Counted from the stretch's first letter, positions 14,727-45,850 are shown. The stretch is DNA of 64,000 nt from Rhodospirillaceae bacterium (GCA_018674495.1 JABHAA010000026.1:84075-148074); one strand, 5' to 3'. The notes: generated from the letters alone by a model not told the origin. Numbers and translations: made by a program.

Positions 14727-16454
14727 TTACTCGGCGGCCACGGAATTGCTGATTTCATGCTCTTCTTGGGGGCTGGCGGCCATAGATGCGAACCCATCAA
14801 CCACTTTTTCGCCAAGCAGGCCATCGGCGGGCAGCCTGAATTGCTTTTCAACCAATGGGAATTTTTTGTGCCTTTTGAACAGGCTAAGGTGATATTTCGG
14901 ATCCAGCCGCTTCTTAAGCCACCAAATATAATTTTTTACATAGGTGGTCGCATCCGTATCGCGGGTCGCAATGGCAATGTCCAGAAGACTTATGAATAAA
15001 CGAAACGGCCCCATCCAGAAGATATTATAGGCCTTCCATTTCAGGAGAAGACGCTTGGAATTAGGCGAAAGAAAGCTCATCAGCCGCAGCATAACCCGGT
15101 AACCGTTCAAAAGCCGGAGACGGTCTTTGTCCAAGCCGACGGAGCCGCCGCTCATGTAGTTGTCATGAAAACCGTTGTCGATGCGGTCTACTTCATCAAT
15201 GTGAATTTCGCCTGCAGCCAAGCCGTGCTCGATCATTTCCGTTCCGGGCATATATTGCAGCATAAACGGCGCGATCCGGTAGCAATGCTTGAGCGGCACC
15301 AGAAACTCCGCAAACTCCATCAGTTCCACCTTGATGGAAGCCAGGGATTCTTCCGGCGTCGGCGGGCGGGTTGATCCGTCGGCCTCGCGAACGGGTAGCC
15401 TTGGAATCCCGAGGATATAATCAAACGCATAATCTTGGCCGACACTTTCAAGAATATCCGCTGCCGCGCGTATCTCATCATTGGTGTCGGGCCGGTTGAG
15501 AATGGTATTACGAATTTCCTCGTTCCAACATTCCACGCCGATCTGAATGGCAAAGCATCCTGCATCATGCATGGCACGAACCGCCCGCTCGCTCACCAGT
15601 TTCGGGTGCAGGAAGCAGCGGAATGGAACGCCGACTTCGCTCTTATATTTTGTGAAAAATTCTTCCATCCATTTCGCACTGCATGCCATGACGGGCTGGC
15701 GAAAATCAACCCAGGCTGAATTGTATTTTTCAACATGGACTTTCAGCTCGGCGATTAGAGAATCGACGGATCGTTCGCGCACGCGCGGACCCTTCAATTG
15801 GCGCGCATCCTCGGCCAGAAATGACAGAGAGCAGAAATTACAGGCGTAGGGGCAGCCACGGGACGGGCACGACAAATAGGAATTTTTCAACGGAACGTGC
15901 GGCGCAAACAATTCCTTATCGACCGGCGGCAATACATCCAAATCAGCAATCAACGGTCGGCGCGGTGTCTTGATAATCTCGTCATTTTCAAGCCGATACC
16001 AAATATTGGGTATGGTGTAGTCGATTTTCCCCGCTTCAATGCTATCGGCCAATTCGACGATGGCAAAGTCGCCTTCGCCCAGGCACACCATATCGACCGC
16101 GCCATCATCTTCGTTCAGAACCGCATCCGGCGCGGAATGGGGATGAATACCGCCAAAAATTACCGGCACGCTATAGTGCTTCTTCAGCTCCGCCGCTATA
16201 AGACGCATTTCGCGGTATTGAACCGTCTGCACATGGAAGCCGACCAGATCAGGTTTCAATTCGATAATATATTGGATCAGCTTCTTGCGCTGATCCAGAA
16301 GCTTCGCCGCCCAATCGATTTTGATGTAATTCTTGTCGTCGAACAAAGCCTGATCATAGGCCAGCTCAACTTCGTGCCCGCTCTCTTTGAGCTTCGCCGA
16401 TAAAGCCTGTAGGGCGATATTTTCCCAACCGATTGCGACCAGAACGCACTTCAT
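14727..16454 (-). CDS. B12-binding-domain radical SAM enzyme (class B), paralogue 1
   Basis: 575 aa. N-terminal Rossmann-like domain with VIFGGIHPHSAPD, then SRGCPYACNFCS (CxxxCxxC). Confidence 0.85.
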   Translation of the reverse strand: MKCVLVAIGWENIALQALSAKLKESGHEVELAYDQALFDDKNYIKIDWAAKLLDQRKKLIQYIIELKPDLVGFHVQTVQYREMRLIAAELKKHYSVPVIFGGIHPHSAPDAVLNEDDGAVDMVCLGEGDFAIVELADSIEAGKIDYTIPNIWYRLENDEIIKTPRRPLIADLDVLPPVDKELFAPHVPLKNSYLSCPSRGCPYACNFCSLSFLAEDARQLKGPRVRERSVDSLIAELKVHVEKYNSAWVDFRQPVMACSAKWMEEFFTKYKSEVGVPFRCFLHPKLVSERAVRAMHDAGCFAIQIGVECWNEEIRNTILNRPDTNDEIRAAADILESVGQDYAFDYILGIPRLPVREADGSTRPPTPEESLASIKVELMEFAEFLVPLKHCYRIAPFMLQYMPGTEMIEHGLAAGEIHIDEVDRIDNGFHDNYMSGGSVGLDKDRLRLLNGYRVMLRLMSFLSPNSKRLLLKWKAYNIFWMGPFRLFISLLDIAIATRDTDATTYVKNYIWWLKKRLDPKYHLSLFKRHKKFPLVEKQFRLPADGLLGEKVVDGFASMAASPQEEHEISNSVAAE

Positions 16455-17179
16455 GATCTTGTTCTCCGACGCGAGTGAATTTTCACGAAAAAATCAATCA
16501 TATCCCAAAATGTCCGCCACATCGTCCCATAGCGCGCCGAAGTTGGAATTCCATACATCCGGCGCCGCATTTGTGATGGTACCTCGGCAATAATTAACTT
16601 TTTATGCCGTGCTTTGACTAACAATTCAACCAGAAAGAAAATGCCAGTATATTCAATACTTATTCCGCCTCCGACAAATATTTCGCGGCGATAGGCTTGA
16701 ATCCAATTTACATCCGAAACACCAATATTGAATAAAATCGGGACCAGTATTCGATTGTAAATAAATGAAGCCGCATGGGCGACCGGATGATAGCCAACCC
16801 GCTCAACGCGCACGCCAACAACGATGTCGCAGATGCTCATCCTCGGGAGGTAAATTTCCAGCTCTTCCTTGGTGAGCGGATTATCGACGGGCATCAGGAT
16901 TATGAAATCTTTGGTCGCGTGGCCAGTGCCGGTTCGAAAGGCGCCGCCGATACCTTGGTTGGCGGAATGGTGAATGACGGTGATTGATGGCTCATTTTCG
17001 GTAAGGCTATCCGCGATGGCGCCGGTGGTGTCGATGCTGCAATCATTGACAATGACAATTTCCGATTCGATGCGAAGCGCCAACAAGGTTTCGCGAATGA
17101 TGGAAACTGCCTTCTCCAGAGTTTGCTCTTCGTTGTAGGCAGGAATCAGGATCGTGATTGAAGGATGGTGATCAACCAT
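16451..17179 (-). CDS. GT2-family glycosyltransferase, polyprenyl-phosphate sugar synthase (DPM1/GtrB/ArnC) type
   Basis: 242 aa with ITILIPAYNEE, VNDCSIDTT (DxD-type) and MPVDNP. Overlaps the rSAM gene by 4 nt. Confidence 0.8.
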   Translation of the reverse strand: MVDHHPSITILIPAYNEEQTLEKAVSIIRETLLALRIESEIVIVNDCSIDTTGAIADSLTENEPSITVIHHSANQGIGGAFRTGTGHATKDFIILMPVDNPLTKEELEIYLPRMSICDIVVGVRVERVGYHPVAHAASFIYNRILVPILFNIGVSDVNWIQAYRREIFVGGGISIEYTGIFFLVELLVKARHKKLIIAEVPSQMRRRMYGIPTSARYGTMWRTFWDMIDFFVKIHSRRRTRS

Positions 17180-18278
17180 AATATTCCGAGATGGCCCTTA
17201 CCACATTGTCGATTTGCCGATTCGAAATTTCCGGAAACATCGGCAGCGATAGAATTTGACTGGCCTGGGATTCTGCAACCGGGCAACTGCTTGGCCCAAA
17301 CCCAATATGCTCAAATGCCTGCTGCAGGTGAAACGGTATCGGATAGTGGACGCCTGATTGAATTTGCCGGCCATTCAGATGCTCGGACAACCCATCTCGG
17401 TCCTTAGCCAGGATGACGAACAAATGAAAGATGTGCCGTTCAATATCGCTCCGCTCGAATTTGGGCACGGTCACGGAGCCGACACCCTCCAACCCTTCAC
17501 AATACCGGCTAGCCGCCGCAAAACGTGCGCGGTTCCAGCCATCCAAATGATCCAGTTTCACATTCAACACGGCCGCCTGGATTGCGTCCAGCCGGCTATT
17601 GGTTCCCGCCAACTCGTGGAAATATTTCTTGGTGGAGCCATAATTTCGGAGCAGGCGCAACTTTTCCGCCAAAGCTTCATCGCTGGTGACGGCGAGGCCG
17701 CCATCGCCGAGCGCGCCCAAATTCTTGGACGGGTAAAAACTGAAACAGCCAATATCACCGATAGCGCCGGCAGAGCGGCCCTTGAATTTGGCCCCATGGG
17801 CCTGGGCGGCGTCTTCGATGATTTTCAATCCATGGGCCGTGGCAAAATCGGAAACGACATCCATGTCCATGACCTGCCCATACAAATGCACCGGCATGAT
17901 GGCCTTGGTACGCTTCGATACGCTGCGCCCGGCCGCGGCGATATCCATCAGGGAACTGTCGGCATCGATATCGACTGGCACCGGTATGGCGCCGACCATA
18001 TTTACCGCCAGCGCCGACGCTATGAAGGTATTGGCGGGAACAAGAACTTCGTCCCCGGGTCCGATTTCAAGGGCGCGGCAGGCAAGAAACAAAGCATCGG
18101 TTCCCGTCCCCATGCCTACGGCAAACTTTGATCCAACATATGAAGCAAATCGGTTTTCAAACTGCTCGACTGGGGCGCCGAGGATTAGCGATGCGCTGTC
18201 ACAAACATCCGATATGGCGCCTTCTAACGCGCCTTTAAGGTTGGCGTAGTTCGCCCGCAGATCTACAAATGGAATCAT
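17172..18278 (-). CDS. DegT/DnrJ/EryC1/StrS-family PLP-dependent sugar aminotransferase
   Basis: The family-typical N-terminus MIPFVDLRANY starts at the internal ATG 18278, 4 nt after the upstream stop. The PLP-lysine region is SFYPSKNLGALGDGG. The listed 412-aa ORF (to 18410) carries a spurious 44-codon extension. Confidence 0.85.
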   Translation of the reverse strand: MIPFVDLRANYANLKGALEGAISDVCDSASLILGAPVEQFENRFASYVGSKFAVGMGTGTDALFLACRALEIGPGDEVLVPANTFIASALAVNMVGAIPVPVDIDADSSLMDIAAAGRSVSKRTKAIMPVHLYGQVMDMDVVSDFATAHGLKIIEDAAQAHGAKFKGRSAGAIGDIGCFSFYPSKNLGALGDGGLAVTSDEALAEKLRLLRNYGSTKKYFHELAGTNSRLDAIQAAVLNVKLDHLDGWNRARFAAASRYCEGLEGVGSVTVPKFERSDIERHIFHLFVILAKDRDGLSEHLNGRQIQSGVHYPIPFHLQQAFEHIGFGPSSCPVAESQASQILSLPMFPEISNRQIDNVVRAISEYYG

Positions 18279-18282
18279 GTAT

Positions 18283-18798
18283 TTATTTTTCTCCGCGCCC
18301 GGTTCGGGTCGCAATTTCAACAGCATCCAGTTCCCGCAAAACCTGAGCGGGATTGCCCGCCACGACGGTAAAGGCCGGCACGTCCTTGGTAACCACGGCG
18401 CCGGCGCCAACTATCGCCCCTTCGCCAATTTCGAGACCAGCGAGGATGGTCGAGCCGGTTCCGATGGATGCAAAATTCTGGACCGTCGTTACCTCGCAAT
18501 TCCAGCTTCCATCTTCGGCCGATAACACCGACGGATACCGGTCATTGATGAAGGACACATTGTGGCCAATAAAAACGTCATCGCCGATTGCAATTTCAGA
18601 GCAAATAAAACTGTGGGACTGAACCCGCACCCGGTGGCCCAATGTCGCGCCGCGCTGGATTTCCACGAACGTGCCGATACGGCATCCGTCTCCGATTTTG
18701 CATCCGTACAGGTTTGCGTATCCGTGAACGATGACATCGCCACCAAAGACAACGTCGTCGGAAACGGTGCAATTGGGGCCTAGGCTGGGCGATGCCAT
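18283..18798 (-). CDS. Left-handed beta-helix (hexapeptide-repeat) sugar N-acetyltransferase, WbpD/WlbB-like
   Basis: 171 aa with successive hexapeptide repeats (IGDGCRIGTFVEI, IGDDVFIGHNVSFIND). Sits between an oxidoreductase and an aminotransferase. Confidence 0.75.
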   Translation of the reverse strand: MASPSLGPNCTVSDDVVFGGDVIVHGYANLYGCKIGDGCRIGTFVEIQRGATLGHRVRVQSHSFICSEIAIGDDVFIGHNVSFINDRYPSVLSAEDGSWNCEVTTVQNFASIGTGSTILAGLEIGEGAIVGAGAVVTKDVPAFTVVAGNPAQVLRELDAVEIATRTGRGEK

Positions 18799-18802
18799 AT
18801 AA

Positions 18803-19888
18803 TCAATTCACGGTTTGCAAGGCGCTGTTATTTGCAGAAGATTTATCCCCAGCCGACAATACAGCCGAAACATCGGCGGCGAAAACCGCAGAGGCGGGGT
18901 TTGGCTTGTCGTCAAGTATCAGATCAACAAATGCATCGGTTTCGCATCTGAGCGGCTCCACCACATGCACTTTCGGGCTAATGATATCGCCATCATTGAT
19001 CAGATACCGAAAGGCGCCGAAATCGGGCTCAATCGTATCGGCAACGCCAATACCTTTTTCGAACAGGCGCACCGGTTCCAGATTGTTCAGATCATCGAAA
19101 ATCGCGCGGGCCTTGCTGCCAACCAATTCCATGGTGCGCAATTTGTTGGCATCTACCCATGATACATGGATTTGACCGAGAACGCCGGATGGGTACTGCA
19201 AACTGATAAAGGCGACATCGGAATTTTCGGTGCCGAGCGGGTTTGATCCAACCACCGACACCTTATCCGGGCGTTCGCCCAACAGAAAATTCATGATTGC
19301 CACATCGTGCGCGGCCAAATCCCAGACGACATTCACGTCCTGGCGAACTAATCCCATATGGGTGCGCGTCGCCTTCATGTAATATAGCTTTCCAAGGCGA
19401 TCCGAACACATCAAATCCCTGAGCTTCAATATTCCGGCATTAAACAAAAACGTATATCCAATCATCAGTTGGACATCGTTTTCTTTCGCCGTCCGGTCAA
19501 GCGCCAATATCGTTTCCCCGTCAAAGGCCAACGGCTTTTCGCAAAAAACATGTTTGCCCGCTTCCAGGGCCTGGCGCGCGATCTCGGCATGGGAGGACGC
19601 GGGCGTCACGATGACCACGGCATCGATATCCGGATCACCGATTATGTCTCGGATATCCGAACAGCGCTTGAAATCGGCCCCAATTGTGGCGCCCAAATTT
19701 TCAAAGGCTTCTGGGCGCGCATCGCACACAGCGACCACATCGACCCGAGGATTTGAGGAAAAATTTCGCACCAAATTCGGTCCCCAATGACCAAGGCCGA
19801 TAACTCCAACTCGCAGTGACAAATTTTGTTCTCCCGTTATCGGGCCTTGAATTTTTGGGCTTCCGCCCAGCGGCACGGTACGGCCCAT
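18803..19888 (-). CDS. Gfo/Idh/MocA-family NAD(P) sugar oxidoreductase (nucleotide-sugar 3-dehydrogenase candidate)
   Basis: 361 aa with Rossmann VGVIGLGHWGPN and the EKP motif (FCEKPLA). The true start may lie downstream of 19888. Confidence 0.75.
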   Translation of the reverse strand: MGRTVPLGGSPKIQGPITGEQNLSLRVGVIGLGHWGPNLVRNFSSNPRVDVVAVCDARPEAFENLGATIGADFKRCSDIRDIIGDPDIDAVVIVTPASSHAEIARQALEAGKHVFCEKPLAFDGETILALDRTAKENDVQLMIGYTFLFNAGILKLRDLMCSDRLGKLYYMKATRTHMGLVRQDVNVVWDLAAHDVAIMNFLLGERPDKVSVVGSNPLGTENSDVAFISLQYPSGVLGQIHVSWVDANKLRTMELVGSKARAIFDDLNNLEPVRLFEKGIGVADTIEPDFGAFRYLINDGDIISPKVHVVEPLRCETDAFVDLILDDKPNPASAVFAADVSAVLSAGDKSSANNSALQTVN

Positions 19889-19966
19889 TCGAATTCTCGG
19901 ACCATAAACTGGCGATAAATGATTGTCACGATCAATGAGGGAATAGGCTAACGTCGAAGCCAGCCG

Positions 19967-21685
19967 TCAGCTTTGGGCACCACCAACGGTGTGTTCCGGA
20001 CTTTGTCCGGCGTCAAATTTCTGTCCAGCTTTCAACGAGATCGCGCCTGTTTGGGTATATTCTTCGCGCGCGGATTTGAGCATTTTGGTTTTCTCGCGGG
20101 TCGCCGCTTTATCCCAATCGGATGATTTGTGTTCATCGGGTTTATAGGCCTTAATCCTGGGCCGCTTCTTCAACTCCGGATTCAACCAGTTCATGACCGG
20201 CTCGGTCAGCCGGAATGGCAGAGCGGCCCATAAAACATTTATCAACACCTGGCTGCCGACGATTGCCATCTCCACTATCTCAGCGGGGTTTAAATACCAC
20301 CGCTTGGGAAGCGCAACCCAACCCATGGAGCGGGTATGGTTCAACAGGCTCATAACCGTGCGAAAAGAAAGATAGGCCCTGAGGTTATAATAAATTATGT
20401 CGCGCTTAAGTTCCCATTCGGATGCTGTTTCCGGCACATAGGGCAGCGGCGTCTTATCAAATACGCTGCGTGTCAGCGCCAGCGTACTGTTGAAATTTGA
20501 CCAATCCTTTTGAATATTCAAGCGCCCGGAATTGACCAGATCTGTATAGAGCGGCGTTCCTGGATAGGGAATCAAATTGTTGAATTTGGTTGACTTGATT
20601 TTGAGGTCCTCGATGATCTTGAACCCGTCTTTTCGGTCCTGGCTGGTTTCGGTCGGCAGGCCGTAGATCATACCCAGGGACACACCCAACCCATGGCGGC
20701 GGCAAAGCGCCACCGCTTCGATATGGATATCAATGGTTTCATCTTTCAAGGTCAAATCCATGAGCCGCTGAACGCCGGTCTCCATGCCGAGAGACGCATG
20801 CGTAAATCCGGCCTCCGACATGCGCTTCACAACCTCGTCGCCGCCTTGCAAGACCAGGTTATCGGCGCGCGTCTGCACCGCAAGTTCCACTTTTGTATGC
20901 AAGCCTCGCTCAATAATTTTATCGCACAAGTCTATAACCCGGCGCGCCTTGATGCAGAAGTTGTCGTCGTAAAATATGATCTCTCTCTGACCATAGCGTT
21001 CCACGAGGGTTTCCAACTCGTCAACAATGGCGTCGTTGGACTTAAACCTGTAGGTCGTGCCGGTCATCATGCGCTGGCTGCAAAATGAGCATCGATATGG
21101 GCATCCACGCGATGTGGTGAGGAACCCCATATCGTATTTCGGATTTTCGAACAGGTGATACGGAAATGCAGGAATTTGATCTAAGTCCGGAAACAAGGGC
21201 GCGTCGGGATTATGACAATTGATCCCATCTTTTCGGAAAGACACGCCGCGAATATCATGACTTTCATCGTCGCCATGGAGAGCACGGTATAGCTGGAGCA
21301 TTATCTCTTCGCCCTCGCCGCGAACCACATAGTCTATGACACCTTGATCCAGCGGCTCATCGGGCAACGCGGTCGGGTGAATGCCGCCGACAGTGATAAT
21401 GGTATCGGGAATTTCGGCTTTGATCATTTGAGCTATCTGGTAGGCGCGCGCCACATGGGCGGTCAAGCAGCCGATGCCGATAACATGGGGCTTGGGCATG
21501 CCGGCCAAGGCTTCGCGGACCCTGTCGGCGGTGATTGTTTCGACTTCCTCATCCAGAACACGGCAGCGGATATCGTGCTTTTCCATATAGGCACAGATAA
21601 AACCAATACCGACCGGAATACCGACCGGAACATAGCGTGACACGAAGCCACCGAATTTTTCTGCGGCAGGATTTATAAATAACAT
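19967..21685 (-). CDS. B12-binding-domain radical SAM enzyme (class B), paralogue 2
   Basis: 572 aa with TVGGIHPTALPDEPL, then TSRGCPYRCSFCS. It is the closest paralogue of 44225-45850. Confidence 0.85.
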   Translation of the reverse strand: MLFINPAAEKFGGFVSRYVPVGIPVGIGFICAYMEKHDIRCRVLDEEVETITADRVREALAGMPKPHVIGIGCLTAHVARAYQIAQMIKAEIPDTIITVGGIHPTALPDEPLDQGVIDYVVRGEGEEIMLQLYRALHGDDESHDIRGVSFRKDGINCHNPDAPLFPDLDQIPAFPYHLFENPKYDMGFLTTSRGCPYRCSFCSQRMMTGTTYRFKSNDAIVDELETLVERYGQREIIFYDDNFCIKARRVIDLCDKIIERGLHTKVELAVQTRADNLVLQGGDEVVKRMSEAGFTHASLGMETGVQRLMDLTLKDETIDIHIEAVALCRRHGLGVSLGMIYGLPTETSQDRKDGFKIIEDLKIKSTKFNNLIPYPGTPLYTDLVNSGRLNIQKDWSNFNSTLALTRSVFDKTPLPYVPETASEWELKRDIIYYNLRAYLSFRTVMSLLNHTRSMGWVALPKRWYLNPAEIVEMAIVGSQVLINVLWAALPFRLTEPVMNWLNPELKKRPRIKAYKPDEHKSSDWDKAATREKTKMLKSAREEYTQTGAISLKAGQKFDAGQSPEHTVGGAQS

Positions 21686-21931
21686 ACCGGTTCACTACCC
21701 ATCATTTTAAAGGTGACTCTCATTAACGCCGCCAAAATTCTTGTCGCAATTTATATCCCATGCATCATTGTTTTTAATAGGTTTAAGAATCGTTTGCAAC
21801 CCATCGGTTATACCAAGGTAATGTAACAACGGTGCGCAAGTAACGCGGCGCACTGAATGTTTTTTCCAATCATTGCCGTCCCCGCTACTCATTGCCCCAA
21901 TCTACCAGCAGGCGGATTGACCGGCAATTAA

Positions 21932-23668
21932 CTAAACGGAATTTCTTTCCGGGGTTAACTGAATGACCCGGGACGATTGATGATCACGCCTTAGCACCGG
22001 AATGGCGTTGGCAAGGTGGATGTCGTCCGTCTTATCGGAAGTCTGGCTAGTGACACCCAGATCCTGCTTTTGCGCCCGAATGGTCCGGTAAAGCGCATCC
22101 CAATTTTTAAATAAAGCGGCCTCATCGCGCTTCGAAATCCAGCGGGCACTGAAACGAACGCCAAGCGATGCCAGGCCGGTTTTGGCGGCAATCCGAAACG
22201 CCGTCTGCAATTTGGACTTATGCGCCTTTTTTGAGAGCCCGGTGACCGCCCTGCCGATGGAGCCAGTCCGGCCGGACAGCTTTGCATCCCGGCTTGTCCG
22301 GTAAAATGCGAAAAATATCCGGAACTTCCAATAGATCAGTTCCAGCTTGGAAAAGCGCGAATTGTGCGAAACCGCCGGGGTCAACTGGCTGCCATGCAAG
22401 ATGTGGGCAAAATATTGCCGGTCAAAATTGATCTGTCCGGCATCATAAAGGCTGTTGAAAATTTCTGTGCCCGGCAGAGCGGTATAAAAATTCACAACAA
22501 CATCGGTGACGCCAAGTGTCTTCATCAATTTAACAAAGGGAATATTTTCCCCCATCTCGCGCCGGGTTTCGTGGGGGAATCCGATAACAATGAAGATGGC
22601 CACGTTTAAATCGGTCTTGATTGCCGATTTCACGCTGCTCACCAGATTTTCAGTTTTCATCTTTTTCTTGATCAGCTTGCGCGTTCGCTCAGAACCTGAT
22701 TCCGGGGCGTAGCTCATACTGACCATACCGGTGCGCCGCATCAATTCGGCTACGTCGTCATCGACCGCTTCGCAGCGGGTTCCAGATGGAAATTGCCAGG
22801 TGATATCCAACCCCCGATCAAGAATTTCATTACAAAATGTCACCACCCAAGGCTTTTGAATGATCGCCGTCAGGTCTTGAAACGGGAAATTTCGGGCGCC
22901 GAAAGTATCGATGTAATATTCGATTTCATCGACGACCATGACCGGATCTCTGGGGATCCATCTGGGCAGCCACATATTCGGCGACGAGCAGTAGGTGCAT
23001 TGATAGGGGCAGCCGCGCGTCGCCAGGATGGGTATGGTTGTTGCAGCCACATCCATGCCGCCGACCATCCGGTGATGATTATAAGTGGCGACATCAAACC
23101 GTTTCCACGCTGGCGGGGCAATATCGTCCACCGCTGAGATTCGGGGCCGGCGGCTATTGACCACCACATCATCGCCATTCCGGTAGGCAATTCCTTGAAT
23201 TTCGGCGATCGGGGCGCGCCCCTCAAAGGCATCGACAAGTTCAATGATCGTTTCCTCGCCTTCGCCCATAGCAACCACATCTGCGCCCGAAGACGCCAGG
23301 CAGAATTCCGGCATCGACGTGCAGTGCTCGCCGCCAACAATGATGTGCATGTCGGGGCGCAAATTTCGGATGAGTTTTATCAATTGAACCACGGCGGGCC
23401 ATTCGTGGGTAAATATGACGGAAATTCCAACAATCGTGCATTCCGGCGCTATGCGCCCGGCAATATCTTCAAGCCGGCTGCCAATCAAAAACCCCTTATA
23501 ATACCGTGTCTTCCCCGTTGGCGCTTCGGCAACCGCATCGATCACATCAAAGGCAATATCGCGTTTTTGCAGCGCACCCGCGATATAGGCCAATCCAAGC
23601 GGCAACGTGACGGACGTTGTCGCAACGCGAAATGATTCGACAGCGGGAGGTCGGATGAGACAGATCAT
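21932..23668 (-). CDS. B12-binding-domain radical SAM enzyme (class B), paralogue 3
   Basis: 578 aa with IIVGGEHCTSMPE, then ATRGCPYQCTYCS. Confidence 0.85.
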   Translation of the reverse strand: MICLIRPPAVESFRVATTSVTLPLGLAYIAGALQKRDIAFDVIDAVAEAPTGKTRYYKGFLIGSRLEDIAGRIAPECTIVGISVIFTHEWPAVVQLIKLIRNLRPDMHIIVGGEHCTSMPEFCLASSGADVVAMGEGEETIIELVDAFEGRAPIAEIQGIAYRNGDDVVVNSRRPRISAVDDIAPPAWKRFDVATYNHHRMVGGMDVAATTIPILATRGCPYQCTYCSSPNMWLPRWIPRDPVMVVDEIEYYIDTFGARNFPFQDLTAIIQKPWVVTFCNEILDRGLDITWQFPSGTRCEAVDDDVAELMRRTGMVSMSYAPESGSERTRKLIKKKMKTENLVSSVKSAIKTDLNVAIFIVIGFPHETRREMGENIPFVKLMKTLGVTDVVVNFYTALPGTEIFNSLYDAGQINFDRQYFAHILHGSQLTPAVSHNSRFSKLELIYWKFRIFFAFYRTSRDAKLSGRTGSIGRAVTGLSKKAHKSKLQTAFRIAAKTGLASLGVRFSARWISKRDEAALFKNWDALYRTIRAQKQDLGVTSQTSDKTDDIHLANAIPVLRRDHQSSRVIQLTPERNSV

Positions 23669-33284: not shown

Positions 33285-33330
33285 CAACGGAACGAACCCG
33301 GCGGGCACAGTTTCCGCGTCTCGCCCGGCG

Positions 33331-38877: not shown

Positions 38878-40329
38878 GTGCAAAACATTGACGCCCCAGC
38901 ATCTGCCTTGAAGCCCGGATTGCAACGTCCGGTGTTGTTGATCCTTGTCTTAGGCCTGGTTGCCAGCGTCTTACTTTATGCCAGCCGCGTCGTGCCTTGG
39001 GATACGGCATTGCTAGGTTTGGCAATCATTTGGACGGCGGCCCTTCCCGGTATATTGTATCTGCAAGGGATCGGGCGCGGGCCGGTGCCGTTTTTTCCGG
39101 CGGTTGGCGTATTCTATATCGTATTTTTCGGCTTGCCGGTCTTTACCCTTCCCTTCGGCTACACCGGTGCAGACAATATTATATTGTACAACCGGGTCAT
39201 TTTGACGTTTGTTAAGCCGGAAGTCCTGGCGCTTGTACTCCTTAGCATCGGCGCCATGGTCGGCGCTTTTTACATGTCGCGGGCGTTTCTGTTTAACCGG
39301 TTGCGGGCCTTCCGATTTGCCAATGAGGCGCAGGCGCCGGCCATCAATATCTTGCTGGCTGGATTGATCGTTTCGCATGTAGCGTTTCAGTATCTGCCGG
39401 TCTTAAGGCAGGTTCCGTCCCTTGGCCAATTGCTTGGCCCGGCCGGGTTTCTCGGCTTTGGCGGCTATTACTTGTTATGGGCCCGGGGCCAAACTTATCG
39501 GCTCGACGCGGCGGCTATATTTTTTATTCTGTTGCCCTTGGAAATATTTTCGCGGGTTCGCGTTTTTTTCCTGACCGACATCATTCTTCTGGCAGTCTTT
39601 TTCATCTTTCTGTTTTGGCGGGAAGGCCGGATGAAAATACTGGCGGGTCTGACCGGATTTATCTTGATCGTTCTTCTAGCATACACCGCCTCCACCAACC
39701 TCAGGAGCCTCAGCAACGACACGGCGGAAAAATTCAAGATCGTCGGCAAGGGGTTCGTAGAGAATTTGCTTCATGGCAAAATCACCGATCCGGAAATTGA
39801 TGTCGAAAACACCTACGCGGATGGCCGCTTTGCGCCCCTGGTCAAGCGCATGTCCCATATTTGGATATTCCATTGGGTGTACGATCAGAGCCCGACACCC
39901 ATCCCATATTGGGACGGGTTCAGCTACCGGCCGTTGATAACATCCTTCGTGCCGAGAGTCCTCTACCCGGATAAGCCAAGGGAAGTAAGCGGTCACACCT
40001 TCGGCCAACGGTACGGCTTGTTGTCGAACAGCAGCAGCACAACATCTGTAAACATCCCTTGGCTGACAGAGTTGCTGGCCAATTTCGGCCCTTGGGGGGC
40101 CGTCCTTGGCATGTTTTTGGTGGGCGTATTTCTGGCGTTCCTCGATACGCTGTTTAACCGGCGTGGCATGTCTGATTTGGAATTTGTCATCGGCCTTACG
40201 CTCATATTCCCGCTGGTCTATCCAGAATCCAACATTTCGGTTATGACCGGATCGCTTCTGCCCCTTTTCATTGTCTTGTTTGCATATTTTTATGTTGGTT
40301 TGAAAATGCTTCATAATTGGCGCGCATAG
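38878..40329 (+). CDS. Polytopic membrane protein, Wzy-type glycan polymerase candidate
   Basis: 483 aa with about 11 hydrophobic segments and one large hydrophilic loop (residues ~290-380). No diagnostic motif; the call rests on topology and context. Confidence 0.4.
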   Translation: MQNIDAPASALKPGLQRPVLLILVLGLVASVLLYASRVVPWDTALLGLAIIWTAALPGILYLQGIGRGPVPFFPAVGVFYIVFFGLPVFTLPFGYTGADNIILYNRVILTFVKPEVLALVLLSIGAMVGAFYMSRAFLFNRLRAFRFANEAQAPAINILLAGLIVSHVAFQYLPVLRQVPSLGQLLGPAGFLGFGGYYLLWARGQTYRLDAAAIFFILLPLEIFSRVRVFFLTDIILLAVFFIFLFWREGRMKILAGLTGFILIVLLAYTASTNLRSLSNDTAEKFKIVGKGFVENLLHGKITDPEIDVENTYADGRFAPLVKRMSHIWIFHWVYDQSPTPIPYWDGFSYRPLITSFVPRVLYPDKPREVSGHTFGQRYGLLSNSSSTTSVNIPWLTELLANFGPWGAVLGMFLVGVFLAFLDTLFNRRGMSDLEFVIGLTLIFPLVYPESNISVMTGSLLPLFIVLFAYFYVGLKMLHNWRA

Positions 40330-40401: not shown

Positions 40402-41103
40402 CTATTTCCCCCGTCCCGCGCCACCAAGAGAGGGCGCTGCGGCGATAAATTCTTTCAGCGCCTGAGCCGGCGTTGGCCGCTCGGCGGTTCCCGGGAACGG
40501 CGAGGCCAGGTTGGCGCGCGCAATATTTTTATATGTTTTAACAAACTTATCGATAAAGGACGAAAGCTTCGGATCAAGCTTTGCCGCCTCATTAAAATAT
40601 TGGGCGGTTTTCAAAATACTTGATTGCACACAGCGATTGCCATCCCGGTGCATACTGCCAAGCACGATATTGGCGCCCGCATCGCCGGCCGCCGCCGCCA
40701 TATTCAGAAGCCGGATGGAAATTTTGCAGCGATCCATTTGGCGCGCCGGCGATATGGAAGCGCCCTCCCCCAAGCGTAAATTTATAAATAGGTGCACGGC
40801 CCGAAGATCGCCCAATTGGGCGCCCTTTAAATACCACGCCGCAGCTTTTTGACGGTCGGCAATGGGAGAAACGGCACGGCGGTCCAATTCAAATATCCGG
40901 CCAAGCAAAATGGCCGCGTGCATATCCCCACGTTCGGCGCGCGCCGCCAGACCGGGAATTGCGGCGGCGGGGTCGCCGCCCATATAGGTGATATAGCCCT
41001 GCTCATCGGACCGGATTTTAAACGCCGCCCCAATTACAATCAGAATGACGGCGATTGCTATTAGTCGACCGGGTTTGGTCATGGCGATTTCATTCCCGCC
41101 CAC
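40402..41103 (-). CDS. Sel1-like (TPR-related) repeat protein with N-terminal membrane anchor
   Basis: 233 aa with an N-terminal hydrophobic helix and repeats of the A..W..KAA..GD..A...LG type (AAAWYLKGAQLGDLRAV, AAAAGDAGANIVLGSMH). Confidence 0.55.
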   Translation of the reverse strand: MGGNEIAMTKPGRLIAIAVILIVIGAAFKIRSDEQGYITYMGGDPAAAIPGLAARAERGDMHAAILLGRIFELDRRAVSPIADRQKAAAWYLKGAQLGDLRAVHLFINLRLGEGASISPARQMDRCKISIRLLNMAAAAGDAGANIVLGSMHRDGNRCVQSSILKTAQYFNEAAKLDPKLSSFIDKFVKTYKNIARANLASPFPGTAERPTPAQALKEFIAAAPSLGGAGRGK

Positions 41104-41316: not shown

Positions 41317-42192
41317 ATGCAAATCCAGTGGCGTTGCTGGGGCCATTCGCCCTTTCAACCACGCGATGAGACTATGACTGCCGGGGCGAATATGATATGC
41401 AAGCAAACGCCCCGCCAGCCTGATAATTTATGTGTTATGGATCTCAAGGAAGTCGAAAACAGGGAAAATCCGCGCCACCCGTGGGAAATTTGCCGGCGGA
41501 ATTTTTTCACCGGCATTGTCGCGGAGACCGTGCGGGGCGGGGCCAAAACCAAAATTCTGGACGTGGGCGCAGGTGATGGCTGGGTGAGCCAGGGATTGTC
41601 GGATGCCATCCCCATCGGCGATAAAATTATCTGTTGGGATATCAACTATACGCCGCAAGATCTGGATCAATATTCCATGGGCGCGGCAAGCGGGTTGAAT
41701 TATGTTTGCGAGCGGCCGCAAGGGAAATTCGATTTGATACTGATGCTGGATGTGCTCGAGCATATGGAAACTGATAGCAAATTTCTAGATCAACTGGTTT
41801 CCGGAAACCTGGATGCGGATGGATTTATCGTGATCAGCGTGCCCGCCTGGCCCGCCTTGTTTTCAGCCCACGACCGCGCCCTGGGTCATTTCCGCCGCTA
41901 TACGCCGGGGGGAGCGCGCGCCCTTATTACCGGCCAGGGGCTGCGTATCCTGCGTTCCGGCGGTTTGTTTCATTCGCTGATACTGCCCCGCGCCATGCAG
42001 CGCGCCCGCGAAAAATGGGCCCCGAAGGGGCCGGGTAAATCTGGGGTTGGCGGATGGAACGGCGGTACGTTGGCAACCAACGTGATCGTTGCCGCACTTT
42101 CTGCGGACAACAAGTTTTCGGCGCTGTTGTCGCGGATTGGAATTTCGGCGCCGGGGCTTAGTTGGTGGGCGGTATGTCAAAAAAATTCATAG
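41317..42192 (+). CDS. Class I SAM-dependent methyltransferase
   Basis: Motif I is KILDVGAGDGWVS, with LILMLDVLEH post-motif II. The start is uncertain; internal ATGs at codons 20 and 42 are possible. Confidence 0.75.
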   Translation: MQIQWRCWGHSPFQPRDETMTAGANMICKQTPRQPDNLCVMDLKEVENRENPRHPWEICRRNFFTGIVAETVRGGAKTKILDVGAGDGWVSQGLSDAIPIGDKIICWDINYTPQDLDQYSMGAASGLNYVCERPQGKFDLILMLDVLEHMETDSKFLDQLVSGNLDADGFIVISVPAWPALFSAHDRALGHFRRYTPGGARALITGQGLRILRSGGLFHSLILPRAMQRAREKWAPKGPGKSGVGGWNGGTLATNVIVAALSADNKFSALLSRIGISAPGLSWWAVCQKNS

Positions 42193-42938
42193 TCGTACCC
42201 TGCTACAACGAAGCAGACCGCCTGAATGGGGACGATTTTATTGCGTTGAGCGCCGGCGCCAACGCCACGTTGATCTTCGTGAACGACGGCTCGACCGACT
42301 CCACGGGAGCCAAGTTATCCGAACTTTGCGGCCAGCTTGGCGAACGCGGGCTAGTCATTGAATTGGAGAAAAATGCCGGCAAGGGCGAAGCTGTTCGCGC
42401 CGGCATGACGGTGGCCCTGGACCTAGGTGCCGGATGGGTTGGCTATATTGACGCAGATATGTCGACGCCGGTATCCGAAATTATTCGGCTACTGGCAATC
42501 GGTGAGGCCGGAAATCACCGCGCGGTCATTGGCGCCCGCATCCGATTGTTGGGACATTCCATCGATCGGTCCGGCACCCGGCATTATCTTGGAAGAATTT
42601 TCGCGACACTTGCAGCCGTGATACTGCGCATACCGATCTATGACACCCAATGCGGGGCAAAATTTTTCCGTAGCAATACCGAGCTCCGCAATGCCTTATC
42701 GACACAGTTTCGATCACGCTGGGCCTTTGATATCGAGTTGATAGGCCGATTGACAACGCCGCCCGCGGCATCCACCCTGCCGCGCTGGTCCGGCATTGTT
42801 GAGATTCCATTGGAAAGTTGGTCTGGCCGGACCGATTCCAAATTGGGGCCCTTCGGAATGATTAGAACGGCGCTTGATTTAATCCAAATATGGTCAAATT
42901 TACGCCGCGCCAGGAAGCAGGAACGATTATCGCGATGA
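42174..42938 (+). CDS. GT2-family polyprenyl-phosphate hexose synthase (ALG5/DPM1-like)
   Basis: FIVVPCYNEADRL, VNDGSTDST and YIDADMSTP (DxD). Its stop forms an ATGA overlap with the next gene. Confidence 0.8.
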   Translation: MSKKFIVVPCYNEADRLNGDDFIALSAGANATLIFVNDGSTDSTGAKLSELCGQLGERGLVIELEKNAGKGEAVRAGMTVALDLGAGWVGYIDADMSTPVSEIIRLLAIGEAGNHRAVIGARIRLLGHSIDRSGTRHYLGRIFATLAAVILRIPIYDTQCGAKFFRSNTELRNALSTQFRSRWAFDIELIGRLTTPPAASTLPRWSGIVEIPLESWSGRTDSKLGPFGMIRTALDLIQIWSNLRRARKQERLSR

Positions 42939-44128
42939 AATTTCCTTTGATTTGGTTTGGCGCGGGAATGTTATTTCTGTCGGCAGCTGTATTTTTCTTC
43001 ACCATTTTTACCAATCTCGACCATGGCTTCTGGCACGATGAAGTCATCTCGCTAAAATTTGCCAGCCCAGACTTTGATTTCGGCGAATCATTCCGATGGT
43101 GGGCAAATTTCGAGCCTCATCCCTTTACCTATTACATGTTTCTACGGATCTGGTTCATGATAGTGGGATTTGGCGAAGCTACCGCCAAACTATTCAACCC
43201 AATAATTTTCGTGATTTGCGCCATTTTGGCTTATCGAATTTGGCCCGCGGAGCGGCGTGCGGAGTTTCTGCTATTCCTGTCACTGAATATGACCTCGGTT
43301 TGGTCGATATTCTATCTCATTGAAGTTAGATCCTACGGCGCCATGCTGTCCGTCAGCCTGGTTGCCGCGAGCGCCATATTCGCGCTGCAGCACTATTCGG
43401 AAACCGGCGATGGCCTGCCCCGGAAACTGTGGCAGCCGTTTAGTTATTTGACGGCATGCGTCATCCTTTTGGCGCTGTTGGATTCATGGGGTGTGCTGCT
43501 GGGCTCCGGCATCGTTGTATTCGTACTCTTAAGATTTCCGATGTTACGGGCGCAAATAATGGACAAATGGCTATTATTTACCGTGCTGACCATCGTGACC
43601 GGCGTGGCTATGCTGCAATATCTGAATATCGTCCTCATTTACGACGGACTTACCTCGCTCGGCATTACGCTCAGAAACTTTACACTGGATGCGTCATCTT
43701 GGCAGGTGATCCAGATCATGGTGGGCGAACTATTCCATCATATTTACGTCACCGGTCGAAGCGAGATTATTGTGGCCGTTGCTGCTTTGGTATGGGCCGG
43801 CGCATTGGTTCTAAATCGGCGCGTTCCGGTCGCTGAAATCTTGATCTATCTGGGCCCCGTTGCCTTCGCCTATGGGGTGGTATTGGTCCTGCATGCCATC
43901 AATGGCCAAGCCTATTACCGGCACTATTCTTCGCTTTTGTTGTTGCCGTTTCTGTTTTTGTTTTTATTGTCAACGGCGTTCCGGGCGCGGGGCATGCAGG
44001 CCTTGCCAGCGCTGGCCATCTCACTGTTTGTCCTGGCAAATGTCGCCTCCATTCCCTTTTTCGAGAGATTCCCAGACAAGCCCCGCCATATAGGTTATGT
44101 AAAAGTATACCAACCTGTGTTCCGATAG
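42935..44128 (+). CDS. GT-C-fold (ArnT/PMT-like) polytopic glycosyltransferase candidate
   Basis: About 11 TM segments. The first loop has the acidic pair FWHDEV, reminiscent of the DE/DD motif of GT-C enzymes. Translationally coupled to the GT2 upstream. Confidence 0.55.
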   Translation: MKFPLIWFGAGMLFLSAAVFFFTIFTNLDHGFWHDEVISLKFASPDFDFGESFRWWANFEPHPFTYYMFLRIWFMIVGFGEATAKLFNPIIFVICAILAYRIWPAERRAEFLLFLSLNMTSVWSIFYLIEVRSYGAMLSVSLVAASAIFALQHYSETGDGLPRKLWQPFSYLTACVILLALLDSWGVLLGSGIVVFVLLRFPMLRAQIMDKWLLFTVLTIVTGVAMLQYLNIVLIYDGLTSLGITLRNFTLDASSWQVIQIMVGELFHHIYVTGRSEIIVAVAALVWAGALVLNRRVPVAEILIYLGPVAFAYGVVLVLHAINGQAYYRHYSSLLLLPFLFLFLLSTAFRARGMQALPALAISLFVLANVASIPFFERFPDKPRHIGYVKVYQPVFR

Positions 44129-44224
44129 ATCAGGTGGCGTCGACAAATTGGCAACCTTTGACATTGTAAAAGAGCAGACCTAAAAGTGGGTTCCAGAATA
44201 AATTAGAATCATACTAAAAATACT

Positions 44225-45850
44225 ATGCACATTACGGAAACAGAGAGGCATACGTCGACAATGTTACTCATAAATCCAGATTTGCATCCTGATACCCAAC
44301 CCGAGGTTTTCAAGCCTTTCACCTATGCCAGCTTTCCAACGGCGATCGGCTATCTGGGTGGATATTTACGGGAAAAAAATGGCGCGGCGGTCGAGCTGTA
44401 CGACGAACAGATTGACTACCTGAGCAAAGACAAGTTGCGGTCTATGCTCGCCGCGCTGGATGCGCCAAAATTGGTTGGCCTCTCGGTTCTCACCGGCACC
44501 GCCAAACGCGCCTACGAAATAGCCCGATGGATCAAGGAGATTGATCCAGAAACCCACATTGTTATGGGCGGCATCCATCCAACGGCGGTGCCCGACGAGC
44601 CTTTTTTGAGGACCCCTGTCGATATTGTTGTTAAAGGCGAAGGCGAAGCGACGTTGAGCGAGATTTACGCCACCCTTATGTCGGGCGAAGATGATCTCAG
44701 CCAAATCAAGGGAATCGCCTACCGAAGCGGCGATCAAGTGAACCACAATCCGGCGCGTGAATTGCTGGACGTGAACGATATGCCGCCCTTTCCCTATGAC
44801 ATGTTTGCGGACAATATCCATCATTACCCGGATTTCGGAACCATCATAAGTTCGCGCGGCTGCCCGTTCGCCTGCAGTTTTTGTTCACAGCGCATCATTT
44901 CCGGGCGGCAAATGCGCTACCTGTCCAATGAACGGGTGGTCAAAAAAATAGAGCTGTTGGCCAATACATATGGTCAGACCAAGATATTTTTTGTCGATGA
45001 TGTGTTCACCGTCAATATAAAGCGAACCATGGCTCTTTGCGATGATATCATCGCGGCCGGGCTCCATAAAAAAGTTCGCTTTATTTGCGAATCCCGTGCC
45101 CGTGAGATTTGTGCCAACGAAGAACGCGGCAACGCTTTGCTAGCCAAGATGAGAGAAGCCAATTTCGTCTCGATTGCATATGGCGTCGAAACCGGTTCTG
45201 AACGGCTGATGGAGACGATCAATAAATCGGAAACGGTGCAACACAATATTCGCGCCATCGAAATGACCCATGCCGCGGGCATTGCCGCAGATGCATCTCT
45301 GATCCTGGGACTCCCTAGCGAAACCAAAGCCGACCGGAAAATGTCGGTCGATGTCGCCAAACGTATTCCCTTGGATGGGGCCCGGTTTAACATCGCTGTT
45401 CCCTATCCCGGCACCGCCTTTTACAACACCGCCGAGGCGGAGGGCCGGTTGAACATTGGCGAGGATTGGGTCAATTGTTCCAATCAGCACTATCTCTCGA
45501 ACAATGATCTGCCCTATACGCCGGTGGGTTCCACCGCCAACGAATTAGTATTGGCTGTCTTCCTGGCGAATTTGCGCTTCACCGCAAGACCCGAAGTGCT
45601 ATTTCACATGCTGTTTGCCGATTCCATGGCCGGCGGCACCGTCGTATCGGTGCACTCGAAATGGTACAAAAGCTGGAAAATGTGGAAGGCCGTGTTCAGG
45701 CTTTTGCTCTTTCTTGCCAGCCGGTCCGCGGTGATCCTTTTCAAAGGTCTCGTCCTGCCATTGTTCGGCCCGAAAAAGCCAACGGCCCGGACCCCGAATA
45801 CGAACAACGAAATTGGCGCGCCTGGTGAAAGAGATCAGCCCGCCGAGTAA
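44225..45850 (+). CDS. B12-binding-domain radical SAM enzyme (class B), paralogue 6
   Basis: 541 aa with VMGGIHPTAVPDEPF, then SSRGCPFACSFCS. It can be aligned by eye with paralogue 2 over most of its length. Confidence 0.85.
   Translation: MHITETERHTSTMLLINPDLHPDTQPEVFKPFTYASFPTAIGYLGGYLREKNGAAVELYDEQIDYLSKDKLRSMLAALDAPKLVGLSVLTGTAKRAYEIARWIKEIDPETHIVMGGIHPTAVPDEPFLRTPVDIVVKGEGEATLSEIYATLMSGEDDLSQIKGIAYRSGDQVNHNPARELLDVNDMPPFPYDMFADNIHHYPDFGTIISSRGCPFACSFCSQRIISGRQMRYLSNERVVKKIELLANTYGQTKIFFVDDVFTVNIKRTMALCDDIIAAGLHKKVRFICESRAREICANEERGNALLAKMREANFVSIAYGVETGSERLMETINKSETVQHNIRAIEMTHAAGIAADASLILGLPSETKADRKMSVDVAKRIPLDGARFNIAVPYPGTAFYNTAEAEGRLNIGEDWVNCSNQHYLSNNDLPYTPVGSTANELVLAVFLANLRFTARPEVLFHMLFADSMAGGTVVSVHSKWYKSWKMWKAVFRLLLFLASRSAVILFKGLVLPLFGPKKPTARTPNTNNEIGAPGERDQPAE

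Follow-up and report, generated by a model that had tools for sequence, protein, structure and literature searches.

Six divergent B12-binding-type radical SAM enzymes encoded in a putative surface-glycan island of a Rhodospirillaceae bacterium

Introduction

GenK, GenD1 and MoeK5 are class B radical S-adenosylmethionine (SAM) enzymes that C-methylate the sugars of natural products, and the class as a whole is noted for difficult C-H functionalisation in antibiotics, cofactors, lipids and proteins. Among such C-methyltransferases of natural-product sugars, the gentamicin enzyme is cited in a 2026 review of B12-dependent radical SAM enzymes, a text that never mentions polysaccharide, glycan or lipopolysaccharide. 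Most members of the superfamily are uncharacterised according to the RadicalSAM.org paper. Here we analyse a 64,000-nucleotide stretch of DNA from a Rhodospirillaceae bacterium (GCA_018674495.1, JABHAA010000026.1:84075-148074; hereafter the window), in which six genes, designated r1 to r6, lie between positions 14727 and 45850 and encode enzymes with a B12-binding-type and a radical SAM domain, embedded in what is probably a surface-glycan island.

The six proteins share with the antibiotic sugar C-methyltransferases a Rossmann-type B12 domain, a TIM barrel with a CxxxCxxC motif and, probably, amino-sugar substrates, and the solved methylases TokK, CysS, TsrM and MgmA are structural neighbours of the models that we built for r2 and r4. 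The relationship, however, is at the superfamily level only, and in contrast to the antibiotic clusters six different enzymes stand together here in an apparent envelope glycan locus with genes for family 2 glycosyltransferases (GT2), GT-C-like proteins and Wzy-like proteins. Modification at the lipid-linked stage has a precedent in ArnD-type modification, and a further one in HpnI-HpnK-HpnJ, where an amino sugar, attached to a lipid by a glycosyltransferase and then trimmed by a deacetylase, is remodelled in its lipid-linked form by a radical SAM enzyme. The window resembles this HpnI-HpnK-HpnJ/Cds arrangement in that a GT2 gene is coupled to r1 and a polysaccharide deacetylase gene lies next to r4; it differs in having no hopanoid genes, and here the presumed lipid would be polyprenyl phosphate, with the sugar passed on by a GT-C-like protein.

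Small GT2s that stand together with YfhO-like or other membrane proteins of 12–13 transmembrane (TM) helices may also recall GtrA/GtrB/GtrC, ArnC/ArnT, CsbB/YfhO and PpgS with its GT-C partner, although the small GT2s of the window, unlike GtrB and ArnC, are without C-terminal TM helices, and the described GT2 and GT-C glycosylation systems are not known to include a radical SAM partner. AprD4, an amino-sugar enzyme with the same N-terminal Rossmann-type domain, is the best or close to the best relative of r1, r2, r4 and r5 among solved structures, but the identity is 16–19% and an AprD3-like partner was not specifically identified in the window. With BchE the window enzymes share the class B architecture. 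Compared with Wzx/Wzy-dependent O-antigen or capsule loci, the window has a Wzy_C-type protein, whereas Wzx and an initiating transferase were not recognised in it.

Results

Six proteins with class B radical SAM architecture and fold

The original prediction had named six open reading frames (ORFs) of a common two-domain build, and all are present exactly where it placed them: r1 (14727–16454, 575 amino acids), r2 (19967–21685, 572 amino acids), r3 (21932–23668, 578 amino acids), r4 (29605–31203, 532 amino acids) and r5 (37042–38517, 491 amino acids, with a GTG start) on the minus strand, and r6 (44225–45850, 541 amino acids) on the plus strand, where it ends a cassette of methyltransferase, GT2, 12-TM protein and r6. 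Pfam searches bear out the two-domain build, as every protein passes the gathering threshold (GA) for both domains, with 40–68 bits for B12-binding (PF02310, GA 32.1) and 47–80 bits for Radical_SAM (PF04055, GA 29.5). The motif RGCP(Y/F)xCxFC, which contains CxxxCxxC, was located in all six as claimed, with CxxxCxxC at residue 201 in r1. A GGxH motif had likewise been claimed for all; it occurs in five, while r4 carries GGVF in its place. The GG of this GGVF is invariant across the r4 family, and r1–r6 all retain the GG of the cobalamin-binding motif. A phmmer search with the six proteins against every window ORF of at least 80 amino acids recovered r1–r6 and no further radical SAM protein.

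AF2 models built from family alignments for r2 (pLDDT 81, pTM 0.82) and for r4 (pLDDT 85.5, pTM 0.86), which has the lowest B12-domain score of the six, show an N-terminal Rossmann domain, a partial TIM barrel and a helical C-terminal domain. Foldseek matched these models to every solved class B radical SAM structure, namely TsrM, AprD4, MgmA, CysS, TokK and OxsB, with E-values of 1e-15 to 1e-22 and TM-scores of 0.54–0.64. The cobalamin-binding-type fold is thus present in all six by Pfam and in r2 and r4 by modelling, and r1–r6 belong to the class B radical SAM enzymes (SFLD subgroup 5, RadicalSAM.org Megacluster-2-1). Cobalamin may be used by the six; AprD4 has the same N-terminal fold yet is not known to bind cobalamin.

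A hydrophobic helix near residues 470–490, flanked by Trp and Lys, is conserved in the families of r1, r2 and r6; in r1 it lies near residue 480, and in r6 the C-terminal helix is found at about 488–510. Its hydrophobicity is borderline (Kyte-Doolittle 1.4–2.0), and this sequence feature would suit enzymes that associate with the membrane and act on lipid-linked substrates.

None of the six falls within a characterised subfamily

Family membership was judged by NCBIfam equivalog cut-offs, with PDB sequence searches as a second proxy. None of r1–r6 reaches a curated cut-off, including those of BchE, HpnJ, PhpK/Sden_1168, AprD4, KedN5 and TsrM, and all six therefore stand outside the characterised subfamilies, in agreement with the original prediction. 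BchE (TIGR02026, cut-off 481 bits) is the top-scoring named hidden Markov model for r6 (185 bits), r2 (184 bits) and r3 (152 bits), and the nearest named family of r5 is the Sden_1168 P-methyltransferase (NF038361, cut-off 575), at 201 bits, against which r3 scores 144 bits. PhpK (TIGR04479, cut-off 600) gives the best ratio for r4, at 96 bits, and the top NCBIfam match of r1 is ApyD, an enzyme of peptides that are ribosomally synthesised and modified post-translationally (RiPPs), at 78 bits against a cut-off of 750. HpnJ (TIGR03471, cut-off 577.6) scores 74–147 bits and is among the top three NCBIfam matches of five of the six enzymes; AprD4 (NF033070, cut-off 500) scores 44–103 bits, and the ladderane and HpnR models score low. 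Relatives in the PDB are remote in sequence (TokK, AprD4, MgmA, OxsB, CysS and TsrM, at 27–78 bits), with AprD4 the best sequence match of r1 and r5 as well as a top structural match of r2 and r4.

Public pipelines name relatives of r2, r4 and r5 'anaerobic Mg-protoporphyrin cyclase' or BchE-like. We consider this label a misannotation because the scores of 152–185 bits fall short of the 481-bit cut-off and no bacteriochlorophyll genes are nearby: Pfam annotation of about 50 window genes found no bch genes. The same annotation of the window found no hopanoid (hpn/shc) genes and no match to PEP_mutase or other phosphonate-synthesis genes.

Old families apparently brought together

Pairwise identity among the six is 21–27%, apart from r2 and r6, which are 35% identical. 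The description of the enzymes as paralogous accordingly stands at the superfamily level and not beyond it, and the claim of a six-fold expansion is refuted by these identities together with the separate distributions of the families. Additionally, the GC content of the r1/r2/r3 module (9417–23668) is 0.518, below that of a flanking NAD-glutamate dehydrogenase gene (59213–63910; 0.573), with the six radical SAM genes themselves at 0.515–0.555; both the low identity and this difference in composition argue against expansion in situ. The GC mosaic and the patchy spread of the families across phyla point to horizontal acquisition, and from its sequence the island appears to be a mosaic of horizontally mobile cassettes in which six old families have been brought together, as opposed to a product of local duplication.

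Orthologous families of their own could be traced for five enzymes, r1 to r5. For r1 there are 1429 cluster representatives at 50% identity (E≤1e-30), with orthologues of 60–66% identity in at least seven phyla. The r2 family comprises about 3000 relatives at E<1e-10, typically of 55–60% identity, from Alpha- and Gammaproteobacteria, Rokubacteria, Gemmatimonadetes, Myxococcales, Omnitrophota, Elusimicrobia, Bdellovibrionales, Nitrospina (with an orthologue in Nitrospina sp. 32_T5) and Planctomycetia. About 2600 relatives were found for r4, which is 71–75% identical to proteins from Ignavibacteria-type and other contigs across phyla, a conservation so unusually high that it implies recent transfer or strong constraint. 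The r5 family has about 4400 relatives, including some in DPANN archaea, Firmicutes and Thiolapillus (T. brandeum). The same island, including the exact r2 protein, is present on at least 23 metagenome contigs, which recur in oxygen-deficient waters, and the gene order is identical in the six shown. The glutamate dehydrogenase flanking the island is 81% identical to its counterpart in a Rhodospirillales metagenome-assembled genome from the Arabian Sea, and the exact r4 protein is on record for a 'Rhodospirillaceae bacterium'.

One r2 orthologue (56% identity) comes from a contig of 200 kb (DATIWG010000051.1) whose bin is assigned to Nitrosotalea sp., an ammonia-oxidising archaeon, where the locus also holds SIS, epimerase, DegT and GT2 genes and a second B12-binding radical SAM gene; this placement reflects either cross-domain transfer or a binning error.

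Glycan-type neighbourhoods are conserved across phyla

The gene order around r1, GFO-(Hexapep)-DegT-GT2-r1-methyltransferase, is kept in 10–11 of 12 loci with orthologues of 60–66% identity, in hosts that include Auribacterota, Omnitrophota, Nitrospinota, Planctomycetales, Nitrosomonadaceae, Desulfarculus and Geobacter. Four r1 loci also carry r5-like and r2-like radical SAM enzymes, and three of these four add orthologues of the window's Rieske protein, of its YfhO-like protein, or of both. More distant r1-like loci (41–48% identity) have methyltransferase, GT2 and 9–14-TM proteins beside the radical SAM gene, mirroring the cassette at 41317–45850 of the window.

Orthologues of r4 show a comparable module: in four relatives, three of them diverse and one at 73% identity, HpcH aldolase, CTP_transf_3 and GFO genes accompany the radical SAM gene inside GT2/GT4/Wzy clusters, and the module is conserved in contigs of Ignavibacteria-type bacteria, Omnitrophota and Deltaproteobacteria. 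Its variable partners are SIS, 2-hydroxyacid dehydrogenase, inositol-phosphatase-like, carbamoyltransferase, FemAB-like, deacetylase and an unknown protein of ~600 amino acids, with a pair of deacetylase and FemAB/GNAT-like genes near the r4 orthologue in two loci.

For r2, whose neighbours in 36 genome loci were detected using the window's own proteins, orthologues of 43–64% identity sit among GT2, DegT, epimerase, SIS and YfhO/PMT_2 genes in these 36 loci and one more. NeuB and carbamoyltransferase genes also occur in the 36 loci, and a GmhA-like SIS gene is often directly upstream. Genes for YfhO-like and PMT_2/GT87 membrane proteins, GT2s, methyltransferases and another B12-binding radical SAM enzyme flank the closest r2 relative (64%), and in one locus an orthologue of the window's metallophosphoesterase adjoins the r2 orthologue.

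The association is looser for r3. Its homologues were located in 80 metagenome loci, and among 117 ORFs adjoining r3 homologues on metagenome contigs, scanned against Pfam, we found nine nucleoside diphosphate (NDP)-sugar epimerases or dehydratases, nine radical SAM proteins (four of them with a B12 domain), eight GT2s and six methyltransferases. In three loci with r3 orthologues of 51–52% identity, an Atg22-like transporter of the major facilitator superfamily (MFS) stands directly upstream of r3; its window homologue (57971–59203) is 35 kb from r3, on the opposite side of the island.

The r5 family gives a mixed picture. Relatives occur in two glycan clusters, each with a second B12-binding radical SAM gene, one of which belongs to a DPANN archaeon and contains GT2, GT4 and PMT genes; as relatives are also found beside ketosynthase genes and phosphonate-transporter genes, the r5 family is not tied to glycans. 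In summary, a conserved glycan-gene association exists for r1, r2 and r4 and more loosely for r3, so that the idea of a set of enzymes dedicated to glycans, put forward from the window alone, fits the contexts of r1–r4 and fails for r5.

Loci with several such enzymes recur in other genomes

Two-domain B12-binding radical SAM ORFs were counted in those related loci that had a length of at least 12 kb. Two or more are present in 13 of 28 loci of the r2 set and in 4 of 19 of the r3 set, while three or four are present in 6 of 9 loci of the r1 set; the maximum in these loci is four in about 21 kb. Since related loci commonly carry two to four such enzymes, the island is not singular; with six in 31 kb it marks the upper end of an unstudied pattern that recurs and is widely distributed. 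Nor is the pattern peculiar to this genome, as multi-enzyme loci recur in metagenome-assembled genomes of many phyla as well as on a Solidesulfovibrio plasmid.

The latter, pDCAR1 of Solidesulfovibrio carbinolicus (NZ_CP026539.1, 69708–88904), has four genes annotated 'radical SAM protein', two of them of the two-domain B12 type, next to pseF, a neuB-family gene, a PfkB kinase, SIS and sialate O-acetylesterase genes, and could serve as an experimental model for multi-enzyme sugar clusters in a named species. Solidesulfovibrio magneticus RS-1 is a further carrier of plasmid clusters, and a plasmid of Azospirillum lipoferum has one radical SAM gene beside GDP-fucose synthase and glycosyltransferase genes. 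When plasmids were searched with r1 and r2 by tblastn, the matches were merely 23–29% identical and of no use for orthology.

Gene content of the window

About 50 window genes were annotated with Pfam and NCBIfam, together with prediction of TM helices. The original prediction held that every neighbour was a nucleotide-sugar enzyme, GT2, GT-C-like protein or methyl- or acyltransferase, which is true of most neighbours and untrue of several: a NusG-like/helix-turn-helix (HTH) pair, a pentapeptide-repeat protein, a Rieske protein, a metallophosphoesterase, an FG-GAP protein, GDSL lipases and an MFS/spermidine-synthase fusion. Its statement that precursor-peptide, pigment and hopanoid genes are missing was borne out in the window, where polyketide genes were not found either. 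The small ORFs in the gaps between r3 and r2 and between the O-acyltransferase gene and r5 were inspected for precursor peptides, and nothing convincing was seen. A 61-amino-acid ORF (21707–21892, minus strand) in the 247-bp r3/r2 gap is called as a gene on some metagenome contigs only; it matches no family and bears no likeness to a RiPP precursor.

The genes around r1, r2 and r3 begin with a YfhO-like 13-TM membrane protein (9417–11714, plus strand; YfhO 24.9 bits), followed on the minus strand by a membrane-anchored metallophosphoesterase resembling LpxG/YaeI (11718–12584), the Rieske protein (12682–13668) and a class I methyltransferase that abuts r1 (13702–14724). Upstream of r1 on the same strand are a small GT2 (16451–17179) with no TM helix, whose stop/start overlap with r1 amounts to 4 nucleotides, a PseC/ArnB-like DegT aminotransferase (17172–18410), a NeuD/PglB-like hexapeptide acetyltransferase (18283–18798) and a GFO/IDH/MocA oxidoreductase whose best match is UDP-GlcNAc 3-dehydrogenase (18803–19888). 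The nearest PDB relative of this GT2 is the Pyrococcus Dol-P-Man synthase (5mlz; 47 bits, near full length), followed by ArnC and GtrB; no NCBIfam equivalog cut-off is reached.

Beside r4, a minus-strand cassette of ulosonic-acid type (24526–29574) consists of a methyltransferase-like gene, a GFO oxidoreductase, a KdsB-like cytidylyltransferase that passes the KdsB subfamily cut-off (221.6 versus 193 bits), an HpcH/HpaI aldolase (165 bits against an HpaI-like model) and a 529-amino-acid TIGR04326-like surface carbohydrate protein (55 bits). Upstream of r4 are genes for a polysaccharide deacetylase and a FemAB/GNAT-like acyltransferase (31357–33308, minus strand). Starts taken from the longest ORF are over-extended here and in the r1 cassette: the deacetylase ORF (31357–32433) overlaps the upstream gene (32223–33308) by 210 nucleotides, and metagenome gene callers give 289 amino acids (not 358) for the deacetylase, and likewise 384 (not 412) for DegT (17172–18410) and 339 (not 361) for GFO (18803–19888).

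A NusG-like protein of 169 amino acids and a winged-HTH protein of 227 amino acids (33331–34520, minus strand) head a train of minus-strand genes of roughly 23 kb (34520–11718), a placement like that of RfaH/UpxY-type antiterminators in polysaccharide loci; from this position the NusG-like protein may be an operon-specific antiterminator. A scan of 21–39.5 kb for promoters and terminators gave counts not above those of shuffled sequence, and we therefore draw no operon boundaries. Next to r5 is a 7-TM AT3-SGNH O-acyltransferase (34553–36607, minus strand; SGNH 151 bits, Acyl_transf_3 107 bits). Between r5 and r6 lie a Wzy-like 11-TM protein (38878–40329, plus strand; a weak NCBIfam match), a Sel1-like protein (40402–41103, minus strand) and, leading into r6 on the plus strand, a methyltransferase (41317–42192), a small GT2 whose best PDB matches are ArnC and GtrB at 23–26 bits (42162–42938), and a 12-TM protein (42890–44128).

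The left edge of the island is a minus-strand nonulosonic-acid module (41–6735) with two short-chain dehydrogenases/reductases (SDRs), a CMP-sugar synthetase-like protein, a TIM-barrel isomerase-like protein, a carbamoyltransferase, a glyoxalase-fold protein, NeuB and a HAD phosphatase. Its right part (48737–57906) encodes a GDSL lipase-like protein, an unknown protein, a methyltransferase, a GT2 with TM helices, an NDP-sugar epimerase/dehydratase, a Wzy_C/O-antigen-ligase-like protein (53851–55314; 51 bits versus GA 31.7), a 13-TM protein and a GmhA-like SIS protein. Three further genes deserve mention: an FG-GAP repeat protein with N-terminal hydrophobic segments (7054–9258, minus strand) and a pentapeptide-repeat protein in opposite orientation to its neighbours (23937–24467, plus strand), both without an evident sugar role, and, directly after r6, an 836-amino-acid fusion of a 14-TM MFS-like and a spermidine-synthase-like part (45927–48437, plus strand), which passes the NCBIfam 'fused MFS/spermidine synthase' cut-off (107 versus 40 bits). 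An Rfam scan of the window matched no RNA family.

Discussion

We consider it probable, on balance, that r1–r6 are tailoring enzymes for the sugar building blocks of a surface glycan, most likely acting by radical chemistry on sugars linked to a nucleotide or to polyprenyl phosphate, and that each was recruited together with its own pathway cassette. The locus would then be a mosaic surface-glycan island of an uncultured marine Rhodospirillales bacterium. Sugar nucleotides of the 3-amino or 3-acetamido kind are classically made by a triad of GFO oxidoreductase, DegT aminotransferase and hexapeptide acetyltransferase (WbpB/E/D and GnnA/B types), and in the r1/r2/r3 module the three corresponding enzymes would make a nucleotide sugar of the 3-acetamido type. 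The likeness of the small GT2 at 16451–17179 to Dol-P-Man synthase, ArnC and GtrB suggests that it loads this sugar onto polyprenyl phosphate, after which r1 (translationally coupled to the GT2), r2, r3, the methyltransferase and the Rieske protein may modify the sugar or its N-acyl group. The Rieske protein could hydroxylate, for which CMP-Neu5Ac hydroxylase and NamH are precedents acting on N-acetyl groups, and the YfhO-like protein, as a putative GT-C, would transfer the sugar to a polymer at the outer face of the inner membrane.

In the second module (24526–33308) the HpcH aldolase and KdsB-like enzyme imply a CMP-activated 3-deoxy-ulosonic acid, which these two and the GFO oxidoreductase would build and which r4 would modify. 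The r6 gene appears to close a second cassette of methyltransferase, GT2 and polytopic membrane protein, and r5 adjoins the AT3-SGNH O-acyltransferase. Chemically, the [4Fe-4S] cluster would cleave SAM to a 5'-deoxyadenosyl radical, which would take a hydrogen from an unactivated carbon, and methylcobalamin would supply the methyl group; the products would be C-methyl-branched sugars or lengthened N-acyl groups. C-methylation is the most likely reaction, with dehydration or ring rearrangement as alternatives, because methylation is by far the commonest class B radical SAM reaction (2026 review of B12-dependent radical SAM enzymes).

A more specific proposal, which we put forward tentatively and regard as possible but somewhat unlikely, is that the r1 cassette, r2-like and r5-like radical SAM enzymes, the Rieske protein and the YfhO-like GT-C make up a new kind of envelope decoration system found in at least eight phyla. 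A polyprenyl-phosphate-linked amino sugar would there be remodelled at unactivated carbons by several membrane-associated B12-binding radical SAM enzymes, through repeated C-methylation, be it of the ring or of the N-acyl group, or through carbocycle formation, and the product would be flipped and attached outside the cell.

Several observations weigh against a tailoring role in glycan assembly or against parts of the scheme. The reaction type cannot be read from sequence; AprD4, which dehydrates sugar 1,2-diols, ranks among the closest matches of the enzymes in both sequence and structure, and neither a cobalamin riboswitch nor cobalamin uptake or synthesis genes were found in the window by Rfam scan and gene annotation. 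The score of 24.9 bits for the YfhO-like protein is under the GA of 28.5, and this protein has no PDB relative. A Wzx flippase and an initiating phosphoglycosyltransferase were not recognised in the 64 kb and may lie outside, and no GtrA-type flippase was matched by Pfam among the annotated genes, where ORFs under 100 amino acids were not scanned systematically. Among the relatives, the r3 neighbourhood survey rests on the minority of ORFs that could be annotated and its support is thin; one r5 relative (about 50% identity; Logan SRR15214128) is located in a Firmicutes cluster with ketosynthase, ketoreductase, acyl carrier protein, FabA and BtrH genes, and another r5 homologue, from Rhodospirillaceae (51%; ENA ERZ829061), stands by an HTH-nucleotidyltransferase and a phosphonate-binding ABC transporter.

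All six enzymes, or some of them, might instead carry out non-methylating radical chemistry on sugars, such as diol dehydration, ring contraction or carbocycle formation, either as an AprD4-like 1,2-diol dehydration, perhaps cobalamin-free, or as an HpnJ/Cds/OxsB-like remodelling of a lipid-linked amino sugar made by a GT2. The AprD4 matches and the rank of HpnJ in the NCBIfam searches favour this, as do gene orders, GT2–r1 and deacetylase–r4, that echo HpnI-HpnK-HpnJ, and nearby SDR and GFO reductases able to finish a dehydration. We nevertheless think it unlikely, given scores far under the cut-offs (at most 103 of 500 for AprD4 and at most 147 of 578 for HpnJ) and the cobalamin-motif GG retained in all six; the island's class I methyltransferases point to a methyl-rich glycan but do not discriminate between the reactions. 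That the substrates are lipids, be it the polyprenyl carrier, the acyl chains of lipid A or membrane lipids, as for HpnP/HpnR, glycerol dialkyl glycerol tetraether and ladderane-type enzymes, is in our view very unlikely: the hydrophobic helix of the r1, r2 and r6 families suggests membrane association, which is, however, equally consistent with polyprenyl-phosphate sugars as substrates, and the partners conserved with r1 and r4 belong to nucleotide-sugar metabolism and not to lipid synthesis. Lipid substrates are known for many of the characterised class B enzymes, one r5 relative lies in the ketosynthase cluster just described and an LpxG-like metallophosphoesterase is part of the r1/r2/r3 module, yet the ladderane and HpnR models score low.

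For r5, and perhaps r3, a P- or C-methyltransferase of a glycan-decorating phosphonate or phosphinate has to be weighed, since the Sden_1168 match of r5 extends over nearly its full length, with r3 also matching that family, and the Rhodospirillaceae homologue adjoins the phosphonate-binding transporter. The score of r5 is, however, 35% of the family cut-off, no PEP mutase or phosphonate-synthesis genes were found among the window genes and other r5 relatives stand in plain glycosyltransferase clusters, which makes this highly unlikely. We find it scarcely credible that the co-location is meaningless, with the island a dumping ground of horizontally acquired genes and the radical SAM enzymes serving RiPPs, cofactors or the like. 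Although the GC mosaic and cross-phylum patchiness indicate horizontal transfer and the top match of r1 is a RiPP enzyme, the ApyD score is 78 of 750 bits and the sole candidate for a precursor peptide is the implausible, inconsistently called 61-amino-acid ORF; the gene orders of r1 and r4 conserved across phyla largely refute this explanation, and the 4-nucleotide overlap of r1 with its GT2 also speaks against it.

The enzyme class and C-H functionalisation of sugars are already known. What is new, as far as can be checked, is the apparent systematic use of several such enzymes in envelope glycan assembly, along with the conserved r1 and r4 cassettes, and to the same extent the original prediction is right that no such pathway has been described: a full-text literature search found no paper on B12-binding radical SAM enzymes in O-antigen, capsule or exopolysaccharide synthesis, which is weak evidence, as the search covered few subscription papers. 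Five traceable families emerge, with thousands of uncharacterised relatives each in bacteria and some archaea, habitually in glycan loci, and the tightly conserved partner cassettes of r1 and r4 name candidate substrates. For thousands of database entries, the 'BchE-like cyclase' misannotation would be corrected.

If the enzymes install C-methyl branches or rearranged rings, this would explain in part the oddity and recalcitrance of environmental and marine polysaccharides, and the decoration system, if real, would imply unusual branched or carbocyclic sugars in environmental glycans. Installation of such branches or rings would also provide new sugar-modifying catalysts for glycoengineering, and would tie surface-glycan diversity, and hence recognition by phages and grazers, to the availability of cobalamin.

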